From a virus, in IMG/VR virus record IMGVR_UViG_3300043100_000006, positions 38,180-102,179 of that record: 64,000 bases of DNA; one strand, 5' to 3'. Position 1 is the stretch's first letter. Each line of letters starts with the position of its first letter. Shown here piece after piece: positions 986 through 24,913 of this stretch. The position numbers and the translations under genes are program-made. The notes beneath the pieces are model-generated. The model saw nothing but the letters and a program-made list of their open reading frames with translations. It was not told the origin of the DNA and did no database searches.

Positions 986-2710
986 ATGGCGCGCGGACTT
1001 GTCCAATCCGGGTTCGGTAAGGCAACGCCGATCAGCCGTGGCTTGTTCGAGCGATTCACGGATGGCGTGAACACACAGATTTCGTCCATCAACCCGATGG
1101 GATGGATGGGGCCGTCGCAGCCGATGGCCAGAGTGGCGCCACGCGGGACGCAGACGCGCATCTGGGATTACCGCTTTGGGCAGAACATCGATTACACGCC
1201 GAAAGCGTTCGAGGGTTACTGCTACGAGGTGCTACGAGACCTAGCGGACGGTTTCGATCTTCTACGGATGGTGATCGAGACGCGAAAGGATCAAGTGAGT
1301 CGCGTTCCGCATTCGTTCACAATGCGAGCGCAGCCAGGCGAGCCGCCGAGCAAAACGAAAGAGCGACAGTTGGAAGATAAGCGCATTGGTAAACTGGAGG
1401 AGTTTTTCTCGAAGCCAGATGGCGTGCACAGTTTCTCCGACTGGCAGCGCATGATTCTCGAAGACATGTTCGTGATCGATGCGCCTTGTGTCTGCCCGCG
1501 CTGGCGGAGAGATGGCGGAGTGTACGGGTTCGATGCGATCGACGGCGCAACAATCAACATCCTAGTGGATGAGAACGGGAGACTTCCGGAGCCGCCAGAC
1601 CCAGCGTATCGGCAGATTATCAAAGGGATGCCGGCAGTGGATATGATGATTCCGACGCCGGCAATTCGGAAGTCGGATCAGTTATTTTATTTCCCACGCA
1701 ACGTGCGGACGCGCTGGCTTTATGGATATAGTCCAGTAGAACAAGTTGTGCTGACCGTCAATATTGGACTGCGGCGCCAAATCCATCAACTTCAATGGTA
1801 CACGGATGGGACGATCCCAGATGTGTTTCTCGAAGCACCAGAGGGTTTGAGCGAGGACCGCTTCACGCAATTCGAGGCGATGTGGAACGAGAAGTTTGCG
1901 ACCACTCAGGCCCGCCGCAAAGCTAATTTCATTCCGCACGGGACTGCGGTCACCTTCGCGAAAGACCCGAAACTGAAAGACGAGATGGATGAATATCTCG
2001 CACGCAAGATCGCTTACGCATTCAGCGTGTCGCCGACAGCTCTGGTCAAGATGGTGAATCGAGCGGCCGGCCAGCAGATGAGCGAGGACGCGAAAGCGGA
2101 AGGGCTCGAACCCATCTTGGCATGGTGGAAAGAGTTCATGGACGATCTACTTGGATTCATGGGCTGCTCGGATATCGAGTATGCGAACGGACAGAGTTCA
2201 CGCGAGAATCCTCTGCTGCAAGCGCAGGTCAATCAAATTTATCTGAGCACGGTCGACGACCAGGGCCACAGCGTTCTGCGGGCAAATGAAGTTAGAGAGG
2301 ATCTCGGTCGCGACCAAATTGACTACGCCGCCGAGGACGACGAAGAATTCCAGAAAGGACTCGATCAGCAGAGTCAGCGCAACGATCTTCAGGCAGACAG
2401 CCAGGAGGATATGATGCGCCGGCAGCAGCAAGTACAGCACGCCGACGAGCCGCGGCCCAAGGCGGCAAAGGCGCTTGCGGAGTGTCCGCTGTGCCGCACG
2501 GGAATGAAGGTAGTGATGCGCGACGGCGATACAGTGACCGGGCCGCATCACGTGGACAGCGACGGCACAGAACTGTTGTGTTATGCGGCGCAAAAGGTTT
2601 TGGGTACGGCGCAAAAAAAAAAGGCTCGAAGCCTACGCGCTACCGGGTCGACTCGGGTTCTCGGAGCGAGCGTCACACGCAAGCTTTTGTCCGAACATCG
2701 AACTTACTGA
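986..2710 (+). CDS. Phage portal protein
   Basis: 574 aa; YGYSPVEQ, DG.TI..LVD..GR.P and position at start of head module. Confidence 0.9.
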   Translation: MARGLVQSGFGKATPISRGLFERFTDGVNTQISSINPMGWMGPSQPMARVAPRGTQTRIWDYRFGQNIDYTPKAFEGYCYEVLRDLADGFDLLRMVIETRKDQVSRVPHSFTMRAQPGEPPSKTKERQLEDKRIGKLEEFFSKPDGVHSFSDWQRMILEDMFVIDAPCVCPRWRRDGGVYGFDAIDGATINILVDENGRLPEPPDPAYRQIIKGMPAVDMMIPTPAIRKSDQLFYFPRNVRTRWLYGYSPVEQVVLTVNIGLRRQIHQLQWYTDGTIPDVFLEAPEGLSEDRFTQFEAMWNEKFATTQARRKANFIPHGTAVTFAKDPKLKDEMDEYLARKIAYAFSVSPTALVKMVNRAAGQQMSEDAKAEGLEPILAWWKEFMDDLLGFMGCSDIEYANGQSSRENPLLQAQVNQIYLSTVDDQGHSVLRANEVREDLGRDQIDYAAEDDEEFQKGLDQQSQRNDLQADSQEDMMRRQQQVQHADEPRPKAAKALAECPLCRTGMKVVMRDGDTVTGPHHVDSDGTELLCYAAQKVLGTAQKKKARSLRATGSTRVLGASVTRKLLSEHRTY

Positions 2711-4062
2711 GGCGATTCTTTAAGCGGTGTCAGGCGAAGTTGGTTGCAATCGCCAAGGAAGTCCCGTCGCTGGGAAAGATTCCAGAGGGCTGGCACTTCT
2801 ACGATCCTGAGAGTGGAGCCGAGCTGCCGAAGGCTGCGGCCGTCGATATGATGCGCGACGTGATGAAGGTCGCGACCGCAATGATCGTGCTGCCGGACTC
2901 TCTGGCGGCGGAAGTAATTGAGAAGGGCACGGCGCTGATTGCGGACGAAGACTTGGCTGGCAAAGGCCGAGAGGATGAGCCGCACATCACGGTCAAGTTT
3001 GGGGTGAGGGAAAATCTGGACGAGACCGCGGAAGTGCTGGTGGAGTTCTATCCGTTCGATGTGACGCTGGGCAAGACGCGAATCTTTTCTCCAAGCCAGA
3101 ACAGCGGAGGCGGATCGGTTGTGTACGTGGAAGTGATTGCGCCGATCCTACAAGACCTGCACGACCAAGTGAGCGATGGCATCGGCTTGCGGCACGATGG
3201 CGCGGATTATGTTCCGCATGTCACGCTGGCCTACGTGAAGACGGAAGAGGCTGCGAAGTACGACGGACTCGATACGTTCGAGGGGTTGAAGTTCACGGCG
3301 AATGTAGTGACGATCAAGCGGAAAGAGGGCGGCGTTTGGAACTTGGACCTCGGCGCTGCACGGCTCACGGCAAAGGCCGGAGACGATGAAGAGGATGAGG
3401 AAATCGAGGAAATCATTCTCGATATTCTCAAAGGGTTCCAGGAGATCGTACCTGCGGTGCAGCACGAACTGGAAGGCACGTATCTGGACCAGGCGCAGAC
3501 GATGGCGACTGCGATGGAGAGCACGGTCCAGTTGTCGGTACTGAATCAGCGAGCTCTGGACTACGCAAGAGCGCGAGCCGCTGAGATGGTTGGCATGAAG
3601 TGGGTGGACGGCGAGTTAGTCACGAACCCGAACGCAGTCTGGGCAATTACGGACACGACGCGGGATGTGCTGAAGGATCTGATCACAAACGCATTCACGC
3701 AAGGGCAGACGCCGGCAGAGTTGACGAAGTCAATTGAGCAGACGGGAGTCTTCAGCGCATATCGAGCTGACATGATCGCTTCGACTGAGATGTCGAAGGC
3801 TACGATCCAAGGCTCCCTTGGAACGGCGAAGGATGTGGGTGCGATTGGTAAGCAGTGGGAAACCAGCGGCGACCACGACATTGACGACGAATGCAACGAC
3901 AACGAGGACGATGGCACGGTTGCAATTGGGGACAGTTTTAGTAGCGGGGATGATGGTCCCCCTTCCCATCCAAACTGCAATTGTGCCCTTGTGTATATCA
4001 CGGCGGACGATCCAGAAGCAGCGGACCTGCTGGAACCTGAAACTGTAGGGGCGGAGGATTGA
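2482..4062 (+). CDS. MuF/SPP1 gp7-like minor head protein with N-terminal 2H phosphoesterase domain (probably reached by -1 frameshift from portal)
   Basis: HITV (~2983) and HVTL (~3217) 2H motifs; C-terminal RA.MIA.TE, K.W, C..N, PP.HPNC.C MuF motifs. Confidence 0.85.
   Translation: MSAVPHGNEGSDARRRYSDRAASRGQRRHRTVVLCGAKGFGYGAKKKGSKPTRYRVDSGSRSERHTQAFVRTSNLLRRFFKRCQAKLVAIAKEVPSLGKIPEGWHFYDPESGAELPKAAAVDMMRDVMKVATAMIVLPDSLAAEVIEKGTALIADEDLAGKGREDEPHITVKFGVRENLDETAEVLVEFYPFDVTLGKTRIFSPSQNSGGGSVVYVEVIAPILQDLHDQVSDGIGLRHDGADYVPHVTLAYVKTEEAAKYDGLDTFEGLKFTANVVTIKRKEGGVWNLDLGAARLTAKAGDDEEDEEIEEIILDILKGFQEIVPAVQHELEGTYLDQAQTMATAMESTVQLSVLNQRALDYARARAAEMVGMKWVDGELVTNPNAVWAITDTTRDVLKDLITNAFTQGQTPAELTKSIEQTGVFSAYRADMIASTEMSKATIQGSLGTAKDVGAIGKQWETSGDHDIDDECNDNEDDGTVAIGDSFSSGDDGPPSHPNCNCALVYITADDPEAADLLEPETVGAED
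2613..2623 (+). other. Candidate -1 frameshift/slippage site (A10 run; A_AAA_AAG)
   Basis: In-frame A AAA AAG heptamer at 2617-2623 in portal, downstream hairpins, overlapping ORF in -1 frame. Confidence 0.65.
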
Positions 4063-4063
4063 G

Positions 4064-4231
4064 ATGGCGCAATATCAGCCCGACCCAGCACCGATCACGC
4101 AGCACGGAATGGGTCCGTGGACGAAGCCAGTATCACCACAGCCTCCAGTGACACCGGGAACGGTGAAAGCGCAACCGCCTGAGAAGCATCAAGGGAGCGC
4201 AGATCATCCACAAGGCAGACCGCCGAAATGA
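4064..4231 (+). CDS. Small Pro-rich hypothetical protein (55 aa)
   Basis: ATG after GGAGG, fills the gap, ATGA overlap with next gene. Confidence 0.55.
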   Translation: MAQYQPDPAPITQHGMGPWTKPVSPQPPVTPGTVKAQPPEKHQGSADHPQGRPPK

Positions 4232-4494
4232 GTGAGCAGGGAGACTTCGCGAAGCAGGTTGCCGACGAAGCCGCGTTGCTGATTGAGATGAAGCGGTTGG
4301 ACCGCAAGAAGCACACGGCATATCTGTGCGGCCAGCGTGCAACCTCGATGGGCATGATGCGAGTGTCGCCGTACTACGAGGATGGGGCAGCGAACGCGGC
4401 GTTCTTTGCGGGGTTCGATGGCAGGGATGAGCCGACGCTGGATGAACTACTCGCTCCGGTGCTTGAGACGACAAATAATGGCGTATCCGCTTAA
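4228..4494 (+). CDS. Hypothetical protein
   Basis: ORF in tightly packed operon. Confidence 0.6.
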   Translation: MSEQGDFAKQVADEAALLIEMKRLDRKKHTAYLCGQRATSMGMMRVSPYYEDGAANAAFFAGFDGRDEPTLDELLAPVLETTNNGVSA

Positions 4495-4684
4495 TGTCGA
4501 ACTGAATGGGCCGCCGCAACCAATCGCTGGCATCCAGTCCTGGAAATGCGGCATGTGTCCGTTTGAGTTCGTTCATATCGAACCAGAAGAGACAATTCTC
4601 GCGGCGTTAAAAATGAGCGAGCATCTATTTCTGATGCACGGCAAGTCAATGAGCGAAGTTCCTGTGCACTGCCAGCAGCACTAA
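4478..4684 (+). CDS. Small hypothetical protein, possible C2H2-type zinc finger
   Basis: CxxC ... HxxxxH. Confidence 0.5.
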   Translation: MAYPLNVELNGPPQPIAGIQSWKCGMCPFEFVHIEPEETILAALKMSEHLFLMHGKSMSEVPVHCQQH

Positions 4685-4698
4685 TTCAGGAGGAAGTC

Positions 4699-5169
4699 AT
4701 GAGTAGGGCACGGCAAGCGAAGCAAGTAAAGAACACGGTCGTAACGGCGAAGTGCAAACTGAGCCGCGAAGAGTGCAAGGACGCAAACTGCCCGGTGCAC
4801 GGCGAGCCGAACGACGAAGCGCCAGGTCCGGCGCCAGCAACGAAGGGCGCGGAGAAACTGGAAGCGGCGGAGGAAGAGGGCCGCAGGATCGCGGCGACTG
4901 GCCACGCGATTCCGATTACCGCAGTTGAGGCGGACGAATCCCTCCACCCGGTGGACTTGCCGGGTCATGTGCTCACGATGTTGCGCGAGGCGCACGACAC
5001 GATCAAACACATTCAACATCAGAACGATTTCACGCGTGACCTTTTGAGGCGGATGGAAAATGTACTGGAGCCGCCTCCGGAGTTGATGACGATCGAAGAG
5101 GCACGGCGGCGTTTGGGCGTAGGTGATGTGATTCGATGCAGCGTAAAGCCGGACCAGTTAGCAGGATAA
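4699..5169 (+). CDS. Hypothetical protein
   Basis: AGGAGG SD; Cys/His motif shared with scaffold. Confidence 0.7.
   Translation: MSRARQAKQVKNTVVTAKCKLSREECKDANCPVHGEPNDEAPGPAPATKGAEKLEAAEEEGRRIAATGHAIPITAVEADESLHPVDLPGHVLTMLREAHDTIKHIQHQNDFTRDLLRRMENVLEPPPELMTIEEARRRLGVGDVIRCSVKPDQLAG
4943..4955. repeat. Dispersed palindrome copy 1 (intragenic)
   Basis: GAATCCC-TCCACCCGGTGGA. Confidence 0.9.
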
Positions 5170-5224
5170 GCAAGGCACGCGCACGAAAATTCAAGTGGCG
5201 CGATGCGCCAGACAGAGGAATTGT

Positions 5225-5833
5225 ATGGGAGCACCCAAAGTTCTAGCGGCGGTTGGGAGCACGCCGGTAGCAGTGACGGCAGGCGCAAGCGGATGGCAGG
5301 TTAGCATCGCGCCAGCACCAGGGCAGAGCGGAGCGTATCAGGTTTACGATCAAAACCAGAATCTACTGGCAACGATCCAGGGGAACGCGAGCCCATACCA
5401 GTGGACGCTTTCCCAGACCGGAGACCCATATTTCTCTGGGCAGATCGTCGGCTACGTGTCGGTGCCATCGGGCACGATGAACATGCTAGTGACGGACACT
5501 GGAACGCAAGCGACCGCCGTACCGCAGAGCGGCGGAGCATTTGGAGCCGCAGGAGCGATCACGCAAAAGAGTGGGCGCGCATTCCTAACCGGTGCAACGG
5601 CCACGGCTTACACTTTGGCTGCGCCGACGCCTGGAGCAGATGACTTCAAGTTGCTTGAGATTACTGACGCGGTGGGTGCCGCTCACACAATCACAACACC
5701 AGTGAACGCTCTGAATGGCACGCAAAGTATCGCGACGTTTGGCGGCACGCGAGGAACTGTGTTGGCATTGCGAGCCTACCAAGGCGTGTGGTACGCAAGC
5801 CCGAGTACCCCGGTTACGCTTAGCGGAACATAA
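5225..5833 (+). CDS. Putative virion structural/decoration protein
   Basis: G/T/A-rich beta protein in head module; GAGGA SD. Confidence 0.55.
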   Translation: MGAPKVLAAVGSTPVAVTAGASGWQVSIAPAPGQSGAYQVYDQNQNLLATIQGNASPYQWTLSQTGDPYFSGQIVGYVSVPSGTMNMLVTDTGTQATAVPQSGGAFGAAGAITQKSGRAFLTGATATAYTLAAPTPGADDFKLLEITDAVGAAHTITTPVNALNGTQSIATFGGTRGTVLALRAYQGVWYASPSTPVTLSGT

Positions 5834-5848
5834 CAAGAAAGGCACGGC

Positions 5849-6235
5849 ATGGCAACGGATCAATTATCCTCCGCGAATGTTTTGCGGGCACAGCTCGATG
5901 CTGCGAACGAATTGCTCCGAAGGTTGACGGCAGTCCTAGCCGCGGTGCTGGTGGATCATCATCGCGGCAGACTGCTGATAACGAGCGAGACGGTAGATGC
6001 GATGTACGGCGACCCGGCGCAAGAGAACGGGTTTATGGTGGATGTGCAAACCGTGCAGCCACTTGGCAAGCACAGGTTGCAGGTAATGCAACCGAATGGC
6101 TCAACGTATGTACCAGCACCAGTAGTGATTGAAGGCGAGACACTGGAAGCCTCGGTCTGCGAGGATCCAAATCATAAGCGCGGCAACGGCTTGCGTTGCG
6201 AGGAGTGTGGGAAACTTCTGGAGAAAAAGGCGTAA
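5849..6235 (+). CDS. Hypothetical protein with C-terminal Zn-ribbon
   Basis: C..H...CxxC at C-terminus. Confidence 0.6.
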   Translation: MATDQLSSANVLRAQLDAANELLRRLTAVLAAVLVDHHRGRLLITSETVDAMYGDPAQENGFMVDVQTVQPLGKHRLQVMQPNGSTYVPAPVVIEGETLEASVCEDPNHKRGNGLRCEECGKLLEKKA

Positions 6236-6441
6236 TGACTCAGGACGAGGTTGACGACTTCGTGATCCCGTCAATATCGTTTACGTCGCGCCCTTCTCAT
6301 CTCGGGAACGATGGTAGCTGGGACCCTGCCATGTCGTTACGCAAACCAAGGGAGGCCACGCGGGAGCAGGTTGACAAGGCGGTAAGTCACTTTATAGACC
6401 TGTTGCACGCTGGCATCGTGCCTATGCCCTACAAGCCATAG
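6235..6441 (+). CDS. Hypothetical protein
   Basis: TAATG overlap with upstream gene. Confidence 0.5.
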   Translation: MTQDEVDDFVIPSISFTSRPSHLGNDGSWDPAMSLRKPREATREQVDKAVSHFIDLLHAGIVPMPYKP

Positions 6442-6489
6442 GTGTATGGGGTGCCAATGGCACGCTGTTGCCAGGAGAGGATTTCTGAC

Positions 6490-8376
6490 ATGGACGCAGA
6501 TAAGGCAGTCCAGTTTCTCGTGAAAGATGACAAGGGTAAGGGACATCTGCCCTACACGAAAGCGGACGGCAAGCCTGACCGCGGTCTCATGGGGGCGGCG
6601 CACGCAGCTCTGACAAGTCCCAAAGGATTTCGTGGCAAAAGGTACGAAGGGCCAGACAAAGCAAAGGCGCTCGCAAAACTGAAGAAGATTTATAAGGAGG
6701 AGAAGATGGAACTTCCCAGCGATAAGGCCGCCGCTGCCCTAATTCATTTAATGGCCCTAAAAGGGCGAATTACAAAGAACGGAGAGCCAGAAAAGCGTGC
6801 AACCTTCGCAATCAAGGGCTGTTACGAAGCACCCCCTGATGATCCTGAACCTGGTCTGTTCGTGGAAGGCATTCTAGCTGCTGAGGAGGTTGATTTCGAG
6901 GGGGAAGTGATGGACTACAAATCCTCGAAGCCGAACTTTCAGCGCTGGAATAAAAGCTTCTCCGACATGACTGGCGGAAAGAGCGTCGGGAACGTGCGTG
7001 GTCAACACAACCCGAAAATTGCGGCCGGTAAATTTGTCGAGATGTCATACGACGACGACAAACTATCTATTCCCGTACTGGCGAAAGTCGTCGATCCTGT
7101 GGAAGCAGATAAAGTACGGCAAGGCGTGTATACCTCATTTTCCATCGGCGCACATTACGCGCGGAAATGGAGAGATGGGAAATATACCCGCTGGACCGCC
7201 GACCCGTTCGAGGGTTCGCTGGTGGATTTTGGCTCGATTCCGATGACTCGCGGATTCACCTACCGCGCAGCCGATGGCAAGGAAGAGCAGCGAGAATTCG
7301 ACGGCGGGCGCCGCGAGTTACGAAAATCGTTCGAAGCGCTCGGCAAACCGCTGGTGGTTGAGGAAGAGGATCGCGTTGTGAAGGCCATCACTGGGATGGC
7401 GGCGGCGAGGAAGGGCCTGTACACAATTTCTGGATTCGCGCAGTTGGTGCAAGAGTTGATCTATATGCGCGACTCCATCACCTTCGAGCGAGAGATGGAA
7501 GGTGATGCCTCTCCGGTCACGGATCGCGTGGCCGAAGCAACGCAAGAACTTTTGGAATGCCTTGCAGCCTATACGCAAGAACAGGTCAGCGAGGAAATCG
7601 GCAAGACTAAGGAGAACACCGTGGAACTGAAGGACCTTGTAAAAGATATCGACACGAAGCACGCATCCGCAGCAGCCGATCCCGCTGACAGCAAGCCAAC
7701 CCCCGACGCCATCAAGACGGCACTGGATAGCGTCAACGAAGGCCTGAAGGTTTTGAAGGCCGCAGGCTATTCTCTGCAACCTGGCTCCGCACCAGCCGGG
7801 CATGACAGTCCGGTGCGCGCATCGGACACAGACAGTAAGGCTGTGGCGACCGACCCGAAGGCGAAGGGTCACGCGGAACTGAGCAAAGAAGATTGCAAGG
7901 CGGAGGAGTGCGACGTGCACAAGAAGGCGAAGGCTGCGGCCGATCCTGACGGCGAGAAGTGCAACAAGACCGCCGAGGAATGCAACGACGAGAAGTGCAT
8001 GACGCACAAGGGCAAGAAGTCGGCAGCGGCGGGAGCCAACGGGGATGTCGCCCTGAAGCGCGCGGACGTTGTGAGCATCGTGAATGATACGATGGGCACG
8101 AAGTTGACGGAGTTCAAGACCGACTTCCAGCGAGAGGTAGTTGAGCCGCTCTCCACTCAACTGAAAGCGATTGGTGACACAATGGTCGCTCTCGGCGAAG
8201 TAAAGTTGCCGACACGCATCGTAGCGCGTCCCGGCACCAAGGCTGTGAGCAAGGACGATGAAGCAATCAAGGAAGCAGAGGACGCGCAGAAGGCAATCGA
8301 GAAAGAAAAGAAAGACGGCACCACTACCAGCACCATTCTGCGAATTCGGGAGAACGGCCAGCGCGTTAGCTGGTAG
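6490..8376 (+). CDS. Prohead protease/scaffold fusion
   Basis: N.RGQH, GVYTSFSIG, EGSLVD HK97-type protease motifs; charged C-terminal half; directly before capsid; in-frame internal GTG at 7621 with AAGGAG SD. Confidence 0.8.
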   Translation: MDADKAVQFLVKDDKGKGHLPYTKADGKPDRGLMGAAHAALTSPKGFRGKRYEGPDKAKALAKLKKIYKEEKMELPSDKAAAALIHLMALKGRITKNGEPEKRATFAIKGCYEAPPDDPEPGLFVEGILAAEEVDFEGEVMDYKSSKPNFQRWNKSFSDMTGGKSVGNVRGQHNPKIAAGKFVEMSYDDDKLSIPVLAKVVDPVEADKVRQGVYTSFSIGAHYARKWRDGKYTRWTADPFEGSLVDFGSIPMTRGFTYRAADGKEEQREFDGGRRELRKSFEALGKPLVVEEEDRVVKAITGMAAARKGLYTISGFAQLVQELIYMRDSITFEREMEGDASPVTDRVAEATQELLECLAAYTQEQVSEEIGKTKENTVELKDLVKDIDTKHASAAADPADSKPTPDAIKTALDSVNEGLKVLKAAGYSLQPGSAPAGHDSPVRASDTDSKAVATDPKAKGHAELSKEDCKAEECDVHKKAKAAADPDGEKCNKTAEECNDEKCMTHKGKKSAAAGANGDVALKRADVVSIVNDTMGTKLTEFKTDFQREVVEPLSTQLKAIGDTMVALGEVKLPTRIVARPGTKAVSKDDEAIKEAEDAQKAIEKEKKDGTTTSTILRIRENGQRVSW

Positions 8377-24062: not shown

Positions 24063-24913
24063 TGTCCTCGCCGCTGCTCACGTTCCCGCTGTCAATTCCT
24101 GCAACGTTCGGCTGGCCTCTGAAACAAACTGCATATGGCACGACAATAACCCAGCATCCGGCAAGCGGGCGCGGCGATATCCGCATTCCGACAATGCTTT
24201 ACCCGCGCTGGAAATTCTCATTGGACCTCTCATTTTTGAAAGGCGACGCTACGGGCGTCAATACGAACTGGCAGTTGTGGACAAACTTTTTTATTGGCGT
24301 CCAGTTTGGAGCTGCGGACTGGCTCTTACTTCACCCATACGACAACATAATTGGCAGTTACAAAGTCACGGGGGCGGTAACGAGCGGGGTCTTCTTCCCG
24401 GACGAACAGGTAGTGCAGGCGACTAGCGGGGCAGCGGCGCAGATGATTGGATCGACCTTTGGAATCGGCCCATTGCTCATGGGACCAATTACAGGCACTC
24501 CAGATGGAACGCATGGATGGGTCGGTCAACAGAGCGGAGCGGTGTTTACGCCGAGCGCGACTCCGGTTGTAAATACCTCGCAGGCAATCGCGACAGGTGA
24601 CGGCACGACTACCGAATTTTCCATTATCAGAACGTTCGTGGTCGGCGGCGCCCAGGAACTTATTCAGAATTTCTCGGTCGGATCGCCACAGGTATTCTTG
24701 AATGGTGCTTTGCAGTCATCCTCGCTGTACAGTATTGACGAGTACGGAACCATCACGTTTACAACCGCACCAGGCGCAGGCGTAGTGATTTCGTGGATTG
24801 GGCAATTCTATTACCGGTGCCACCTCCTGAAAGACGAGTTTGACGATTTGAGCGAGGACTATTACCAGTTATGGTCCTGCAGTTCCGTGGAGTTTGAAAG
24901 CAGCCTTCTCTGA
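24062..24913 (+). CDS. Distal tail protein (DUF2460-like)
   Basis: SGR..R....YPRW; GDGTTT.F; G.ITFTTAPGAG..ISW.G.FYYRC. Confidence 0.8.
   Translation: MSSPLLTFPLSIPATFGWPLKQTAYGTTITQHPASGRGDIRIPTMLYPRWKFSLDLSFLKGDATGVNTNWQLWTNFFIGVQFGAADWLLLHPYDNIIGSYKVTGAVTSGVFFPDEQVVQATSGAAAQMIGSTFGIGPLLMGPITGTPDGTHGWVGQQSGAVFTPSATPVVNTSQAIATGDGTTTEFSIIRTFVVGGAQELIQNFSVGSPQVFLNGALQSSSLYSIDEYGTITFTTAPGAGVVISWIGQFYYRCHLLKDEFDDLSEDYYQLWSCSSVEFESSLL

Follow-up and report, generated by a model that had tools for sequence, protein, structure and literature searches.

In the phage record IMGVR_UViG_3300043100_000006 of the IMG/VR database, the gene for the portal protein appears to contain a conserved recoding junction, at which a minority of portal subunits would leave the portal frame at a run of adenines and continue, in the -1 frame, with a 2H phosphoesterase followed by a MuF head domain. 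From the comparative evidence described below we put the probability of this reading at roughly 80%. The DNA analysed, referred to here as the window, is a stretch of 64,000 nucleotides (nt) that comprises bases 38180-102179 of the record, which is complete at 102,179 bp and contains direct terminal repeats. An earlier note on this DNA, made from the letters alone, had suggested that recoding extends a fraction of the portal subunits. This core inference is supported by the conservation of the site, a switch of the frame under selection, the tails of related portals that follow a lysine triplet, and relatives in which the same modules are joined in frame.

The portal gene (986-2710; plus strand, as for all window features given below unless stated otherwise) begins with ATG at 986 and ends with TGA at 2708-2710. 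Its product without a shift is a protein of 574 amino acids (aa), P0001, which matches PF04860 with 52.8 bits against a cut-off of 39.1. Near its 3' end lies a run of ten adenines (A10, 2613-2622), read in the portal frame as CAA AAA AAA AAG, and the candidate recoding heptamer A_AAA_AAG (2617-2623) is in portal-frame phase, i.e. it is split by the codons as X_XXY_YYZ. The unshifted portal continues into a 0-frame tail of 28 codons and TGA (2624-2710), whose protein sequence is not conserved. The overlapping -1 open reading frame (ORF) is open from a stop at 2320 through 4062. Beyond the heptamer it constitutes an extension of 479 aa plus stop (2623-4062), and the first 39 codons of this extension (2623-2739), which have no start codon of their own, form a linker that connects the portal to the 2H domain. 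The linker is strongly basic, with an isoelectric point of 11.8 over the first 45 residues of the extension. If the frame shifts there, portal residues 1-546 would be joined to the 479 aa, and the trans-frame product would have 1025 aa. Inspection of the sequence agrees with the earlier note on the A10 run over CAA AAA AAA AAG, on an overlapping -1 frame that carries two HxT motifs and then MuF (PF13563, E 1e-10; PF04233, E 3e-11), and on a fusion of roughly 1025 aa.

The comparison at the DNA level comprised three distinct genomes, i.e. the window and two relatives, L002 and L082; a further contig, L118, showed no difference from L082 across 9320 nt and was counted with it as one genome. Protein identity of L002 and L082/L118 to the window is roughly 71-80%. 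Default-setting blastn gave no alignments between the window and these relatives; the region was covered by a MAFFT alignment. One close relative, L082, was gained by a scan of metagenomes, the single match from a scan of genomes was archaeal and irrelevant, and a degenerate DNA pattern of the conserved linker matched only the two IMG/VR contigs that were already known.

In L002 and L082 the run consists of nine adenines instead of ten and the preceding codon is CTA instead of CAA, a difference that is due to a substitution and not to an insertion or deletion (indel). Their portal frame accordingly reads CTA AAA AAA AAG, and the phase of the heptamer, the -1 relation of the two frames and the position of the 0-frame stop are all the same as in the window. 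Over the 123 nt upstream of the run, the window differs from L002 by 6, 6 and 22 substitutions at the first, second and third codon positions of the portal frame, respectively; in this part the -1 frame is unconserved, and it is interrupted by a stop in L002 and L082. Over the 117 nt downstream of the run, the substitutions amount to 0, 1 and 16 when counted by codon position of the -1 frame. Sixteen of these 17 changes are thus on its third position (P = 2.7e-7 for at least 16 of 17 landing on one given phase), and the substitutions in this part sit on second positions of the portal-frame tail. In protein terms, 38 of the 39 linker residues are identical to those of L002 and L082, whereas the portal-frame reading diverges there. 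The change of pattern from one side of the run to the other indicates that selection passes from the one frame to the other precisely at the run of adenines, and that the -1 frame is translated across the 39 start-less codons.

Portal homologues were also compared as proteins, drawn from JGI, Logan, ENA and NCBI assemblies. All portals in the set P0046-P0060, which are 65-83% identical to that of the window, have three lysines (KKK) at the same place and then a divergent tail of 23-37 residues; counted beyond L002 and L082, the combination of KKK with a short divergent tail is seen in 13 or more portals, which come from these four sources. Five more distant portals have LKKN at the place of KKK. 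The tails vary widely among 20 homologues, although all of them end with a tyrosine followed by the stop. In the ten closest portals, 23-28 of 29 tail positions are compatible with the conserved -1 peptide, as against a mean of about 15-19 and a maximum of 20-24 for shuffled sequences; among the distant portals P0056-P0065 the comparison does not discriminate. Conservation of the A run among homologues, by which the earlier note had proposed to judge its reading, is seen in the DNA of L002 and L082, as A9 with the same heptamer phase and -1 relation; in the other portals, KKK is kept at the protein level.

Just upstream of the A run, the C-terminal region of the portal contains a CxxC...HH...C motif (CPLCRTGMKVV...GPHHVD...ELLCY, 2483-2581). 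It is kept in P0046-P0058 as well as in L002 and L082, and is absent from the shorter portals P0059-P0065. The motif may represent a small zinc-binding module.

The start codons available to the -1 ORF were then considered. Its start candidates, GTG 2482, GTG 2578, TTG 2740 and ATG 2848, show weak pairing with the anti-Shine-Dalgarno (anti-SD) sequence, between -2.0 and -3.7 kcal/mol, compared with -6.3 for the portal start and -10.3 and -9.7 for the clear starts at 4699 and 24062, respectively. No ATG, GTG or TTG lies in the -1 frame between 2578 and 2740. The statement in the earlier note that the frame has no convincing SD-led start is in line with these values. The gene caller had placed the start of a 440-aa '2H-MuF' protein (P0003) at TTG 2740-2742, which has an SD pairing of -3.7 kcal/mol and is replaced by CTG in L002; it is probably not the main start. 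ATG 2848 was rejected as the main start, the 36 codons upstream of it being conserved as protein in the relatives. Gene-finder starts of 2H-MuF vary in nearly every relative, i.e. they are TTG, GTG or ATG at different codons that lie up to 70 apart, and such scatter is to be expected if no real start exists. Some low-level independent initiation may take place beside recoding.

Relatives in which the same modules are arranged differently provide another line of evidence. P0311, a protein of 1157 aa whose portal is 79% identical to that of the window, runs in frame via KKK into QKITSVRIDTSQHSDRHQQAVERTSGLLQKFFKRQKSKLVA...PDGWHLYDP. Its residues 540-612 are homologous to the -1 linker of the window (E 4e-18) and are followed by a MuF domain with 55% identity, and it has no 2H domain. 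Single-ORF portal-2H-MuF proteins are encoded by more distant phages of about 95 kb, as a 1027-aa open frame in L074 and an open-ended frame of 953 aa in L105. In other lineages, 2H-MuF is a gene of its own, translationally coupled through a canonical start (ATGA in L083 and TAATG in L102). We therefore distinguish three states of these modules: in-frame fusion, frame-shifted fusion and separate gene. A close in-frame version that includes 2H was not found in the 'near' and 'longer' protein searches. Dozens of single-ORF portal-MuF proteins of 720-830 aa occur among the more distant homologues. The 'portal' profile phrog_2662 of the PHROG database, which has 717 positions, is matched by P0001 at 13-465 and by the -1 ORF at 485-709, which indicates that phrog_2662 is a family of portal-MuF fusions. 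Fusions of this type have been described for Microbacterium phages of clusters EA3/EA5/EA8 and EB (PMC7302621).

P0311, which is encoded on a Logan contig of 24,576 bp, has an extra C-terminal region of about 300 aa. This region carries two copies of LKYSPDQ.RDD.GRW, around residues 881 and 1047, a motif that may mark a boundary between modules or serve in processing. In a 94-kb phage, an open frame of 1730 codons (L021:1391-6580) includes a region 42% identical to the 2H-MuF protein, and it is probably a larger portal-anchored multi-domain protein.

The portal site is the only run of eight or more adenines in the 64-kb window. AAAAAAG occurs there twice, compared with an expectation of 8.95 +/- 3.06; the second copy, at 24286 on the minus strand, is antisense within a plus-strand ORF and hence irrelevant. 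As to lysine codons in general, AAA-AAR makes up 7 of the 36 Lys-Lys dicodons of the long ORFs, though AAA accounts for 41% of lysine codons. AAG-AAA is used 18 times, AAA-AAG four times and AAA-AAA three times, with the portal site included. It seems that slippery lysine sequences are avoided elsewhere in this genome.

In the mechanism that we propose, most ribosomes would read through CAA AAA AAA AAG and the 28 non-conserved codons up to the stop, producing the 574-aa portal, whereas a fraction of decoding events would pass into the -1 frame at the A run. This could happen by two routes, which may combine. In the first, tRNA-Lys would slip one base back on A_AAA_AAG; in the second, RNA polymerase would add one A to the A9/A10 run in some of the transcripts. 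The shifted chain of 1025 aa would consist of the portal followed by the basic 39-residue linker, the 2H phosphoesterase, an acidic spacer and MuF. As the extension would hang off the C-terminal end of the portal, which faces the capsid interior, a dodecamer may contain a few such subunits, with the enzyme packaged beside the channel through which the DNA exits and released into the host on infection. Its copy number would be set by the efficiency of recoding.

Several observations weigh against this reading. The 77 nt downstream do not fold better than shuffled sequences (z = 0.69, -0.10 and -0.24), covariation is absent from all 31 consensus pairs, and no SD-like element was seen by eye upstream of the run. 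The signal is therefore incomplete as a classical stimulated -1 shift. The earlier note had pointed to hairpins after the run. These are indeed present in the window, but their role as stimulators is not supported, as they are short and are not kept in L002 and L082: hairpin 1, GGCTCGAAGCC, corresponds to AGTCTCAAAGCC in L002 and L082, and hairpin 2 retains only 3 bp there. A CGCUAC...GUAGCG stem that begins 14 nt after the heptamer in L002 and L082 was also considered and rejected, since it is broken in the window. Furthermore, A_AAA_AAG is strongly shift-prone in hosts of the E. coli type, and it can shift without stimulators where tRNA-Lys(UUU) reads AAG, and the host of this phage may not be of that type. 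Start-like TTG, GTG or ATG codons are found near 2740 in most relatives, and also 12 codons upstream of the run. Finally, the comparison at the DNA level rests on three distinct genomes.

The lack of a stimulator agrees with a variant of the proposed mechanism, compatible with it, in which the frame is changed by the polymerase and not by the ribosome, i.e. stuttering on A9/A10 adds one A in a share of the transcripts. On runs of 9-10 adenines bacterial RNA polymerases tend to gain or lose a base, and slippage becomes efficient at nine or more A/T. All three genomes have such a run, which exceeds the seven bases needed by the ribosome by two to three adenines, and in each the codon before the lysines also ends with A (CAA or CTA). 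Neither a conserved 3' structure nor an upstream stimulator was found. On the other hand, the phase of A_AAA_AAG is right in all of them, for which polymerase slippage has no need, and the length of the run may merely reflect the conserved KKK, which is kept by the in-frame P0311 as well. Slippage as the sole route is possible, though we would not favour it. As to their part in recoding at this junction, ribosomal -1 shifting and transcriptional slippage appear about equally likely, and both may operate.

It is unlikely that the region consists of two ordinary genes, with the portal ending at 2710, 2H-MuF starting weakly at GTG 2578 (TTG in L002) or at TTG 2740, and the A run being no more than a stretch of lysine codons. 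Start-like codons do occur at those places in all three genomes, a separate protein of 404-444 aa is called in every relative, and coupled, separate 2H-MuF genes are present in other lineages (ATGA in L083, TAATG in L102). However, a start at 2740 or 2848 does not explain the purifying selection on the -1 frame over the 39 codons upstream, and a start at 2578 implies an unconserved N-terminus, a weak SD (-2.2 kcal/mol) and an overlap of about 130 nt. The 128 kb of the two strands contain just two AAAAAAG, and it would have to be a coincidence that the selected frame changes at one of them; furthermore, the linker belongs to the portal chain in P0311, L074 and L105.

Still less credible is an artefact or recent lesion, in which a continuous portal-2H-MuF ORF has lost one A of the homopolymer by assembly or mutation: long homopolymers are error-prone, exactly the same protein would result from in-frame reading and in-frame relatives (P0311 and L074) exist, but the -1 relation is common to three genomes with two run lengths, which differ by a substitution at the 5' edge and not by an indel, a stop soon after KKK is also found in 13 or more other portal clusters, which come from four sources and reach down to 65% identity, the 'near' and 'longer' searches found no close in-frame 2H version (P0311, without 2H, differs in architecture), and an arrangement kept over such divergence, with purifying selection on both sides, is by definition functional recoding or separate expression.

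The first domain of the extension, the 2H phosphoesterase (2869-3348), contains HxT motifs at 2983-2991 (H-I-T) and 3217-3225 (H-V-T). It matches PF13563 with 42.2 bits against a cut-off of 27 (E 1e-10) and PF02834 with E 5.7e-6. The motifs, PHITV and PHVTL (H82-x-T84 and H160-x-T162 in the numbering of P0003), are invariant in 10 homologues, and H52, T54 and H130 of the 2H domain are invariant in 46 sequences. An AF2 model of 2830-3400 reached a predicted local distance difference test score (pLDDT) of 90.9 and a predicted template modelling score (pTM) of 0.84. Searched against PDB folds, the model gave 52 matches at E <= 1e-3, and those listed were mostly 2H phosphoesterases. The best were 2',3'-cyclic phosphodiesterases/'2'-5' RNA ligases' of the LigT/ThpR type (1vdx, 1iuh, 5h7e, 2d4g, 1jh6 and 5ldm; E 4e-7 to 1e-5). 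The motifs and the model argue for a genuine 2H enzyme whose active site is intact and whose fold is LigT-like. The 2H domain family comprises 2910 representatives, many of which are parts of proteins of 1000-5700 aa. One homologue, P0012 (647 aa, from a 5,741-bp JGI contig), has about 205 aa of unrelated sequence inserted into the 2H domain directly after the second HxT.

The earlier note had named T4 Acb1 as an example of 2H enzymes that degrade CBASS cyclic oligonucleotides; the domain described here is LigT-like rather than demonstrably Acb1-like. LigT/ThpR and cyclic phosphodiesterase (CPDase) structures take fold ranks 1-10, followed at some distance by the penguinpox phosphodiesterase acting on cyclic GMP-AMP (28 and 34) and the Burkholderia phage enzyme 9q2g (41). 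In the BFVD search the top viral models are 2H domains within phage structural proteins of about 1000 aa, and Acb1 entries rank 26 and below. Acb1-type enzymes are therefore not the closest structural neighbours in either PDB or BFVD. The Acb1 family PF23474 is matched with 21.7 bits by P0002 and 22.1 by P0003, short of its cut-off of 27, and weak matches to it, with a best E of 1e-6, are given by each of the 10 clade members. A family profile run against PDB sequences had only weak matches, to viral cyclic-nucleotide enzymes and a plant CPDase (E 0.012-0.06). Candidate substrates may include cyclic oligonucleotide immune signals, 2'-5' linked oligonucleotides and RNA ends with a 2',3'-cyclic phosphate, as produced by anticodon nucleases of the host, so that activity against cyclic-oligonucleotide-based antiphage signalling (CBASS) may be one of several possible roles.

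The last domain is a MuF (SPP1 gp7-like) head domain (3382-4002) with a Pfam core at 3670-3990, where PF04233 scores 44.4 bits against a cut-off of 29.6 (E 3e-11). The order of modules is portal, 2H and MuF, i.e. an effector enzyme is joined to head modules, as in polyvalent proteins.

Both the architecture and the idea of an injected counter-defence enzyme have already been published. In the consulted portions of Iyer et al. 2017 (PMC5512222) and 2022 (PMC9503650), 2H domains fused to MuF or portal are described, and it is proposed that they are packaged in the head and injected, acting as RNases or on RNA ends or destroying immune nucleotide signals. Those fusions have the same architecture and proposed role as the protein discussed here, but they are in frame, and neither a recoding junction nor sub-stoichiometric loading is mentioned in the same portions of the two papers. 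The phrog_2662 and Microbacterium portal-MuF fusions (PMC7302621) likewise have portal and MuF in this order; here, however, the two modules are in different frames, are linked only via the A run and have a 2H domain between them.

Among known recoding systems, dnaX of E. coli uses the same A_AAA_AAG heptamer, and the lambda G/GT pair follows the same two-product logic, in which a short and a C-terminally extended protein are made at a fixed ratio from the mRNA of one structural gene. In contrast to both, no downstream stem-loop or SD-like stimulator was detected here, and the gene pair is a portal with its MuF cargo. Slippage in dnaX of Thermus thermophilus and tssM of Citrobacter (PMC4256274) takes place on A9-A11 runs, and here too 9-10 adenines are found at the change of frame, but the phase of the heptamer, irrelevant in those genes, is conserved in this one. 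T4 Acb1 and viral cyclic-oligonucleotide phosphodiesterases (7t26, 9q2g and 9bkq) share the 2H fold with two HxT motifs and are the best, albeit weak, PDB matches by sequence. Acb1 is a free early protein, whereas the domain described here is part of a head protein, scores 21.7-22.1 bits against the PF23474 cut-off of 27 and finds these enzymes at fold ranks 28-41.

Full-text literature searches, in which transcriptional slippage was included, found no description of a portal-MuF recoding site, and the word 'portal' is absent from the consulted portions of a 2016 review of recoding (PMC5009743) and of the PRFect paper. A conserved portal-MuF recoding junction thus appears to be new. Few phage recoding sites have a clear structural rationale, e.g. 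the tail chaperones G/GT and some capsid extensions. Should the junction operate as proposed, it would reveal by what means a phage fixes the number of copies of a cargo protein inside its head, and it would explain the start-less '2H-MuF' gene calls in this lineage. We tentatively suggest, at somewhat less than even odds, that it is a dosing device, in which about 1-3 of the 12 portal subunits carry the enzyme, for counter-defence or for processing RNA ends, at the exit channel and the enzyme is the first to leave the capsid, that related phages toggle between in-frame, frameshifted and separate versions, and that this is a second widespread class of recoding in structural genes beside G/GT. 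The junction might constitute a testable system for the delivery of portal-tethered enzymes to the host, predicted since 2017, and for the cleavage targets of 2H domains linked to MuF or portal. Annotators should join these genes rather than call them from an arbitrary TTG or GTG.

As to the phage itself, a blastn search of GenBank phage records with 986-4062 gave no match, and a PHROG scan (E <= 1e-3) of the ORF upstream of the portal (3-950) and the six ORFs downstream of 2H-MuF (4228-8376) matched no family. The sequence data therefore indicate that the lineage is undescribed. Protease, scaffold and capsid genes could not be recognised by sequence at 3-950 and 4228-8376.

A further peculiarity of the portal gene was seen in one of the relatives. 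In L082 (1827-2960; the same in L118), the portal is interrupted by an in-frame insert of about 378 aa, which starts at ...SRLYGF|CFSPDTEVLTRDGW and after which the portal resumes with ...SPVEQL. The insert looks like an intein with a middle part of the size of a homing endonuclease, and the portal homologue P0052 (944 aa) appears to carry the same insert.

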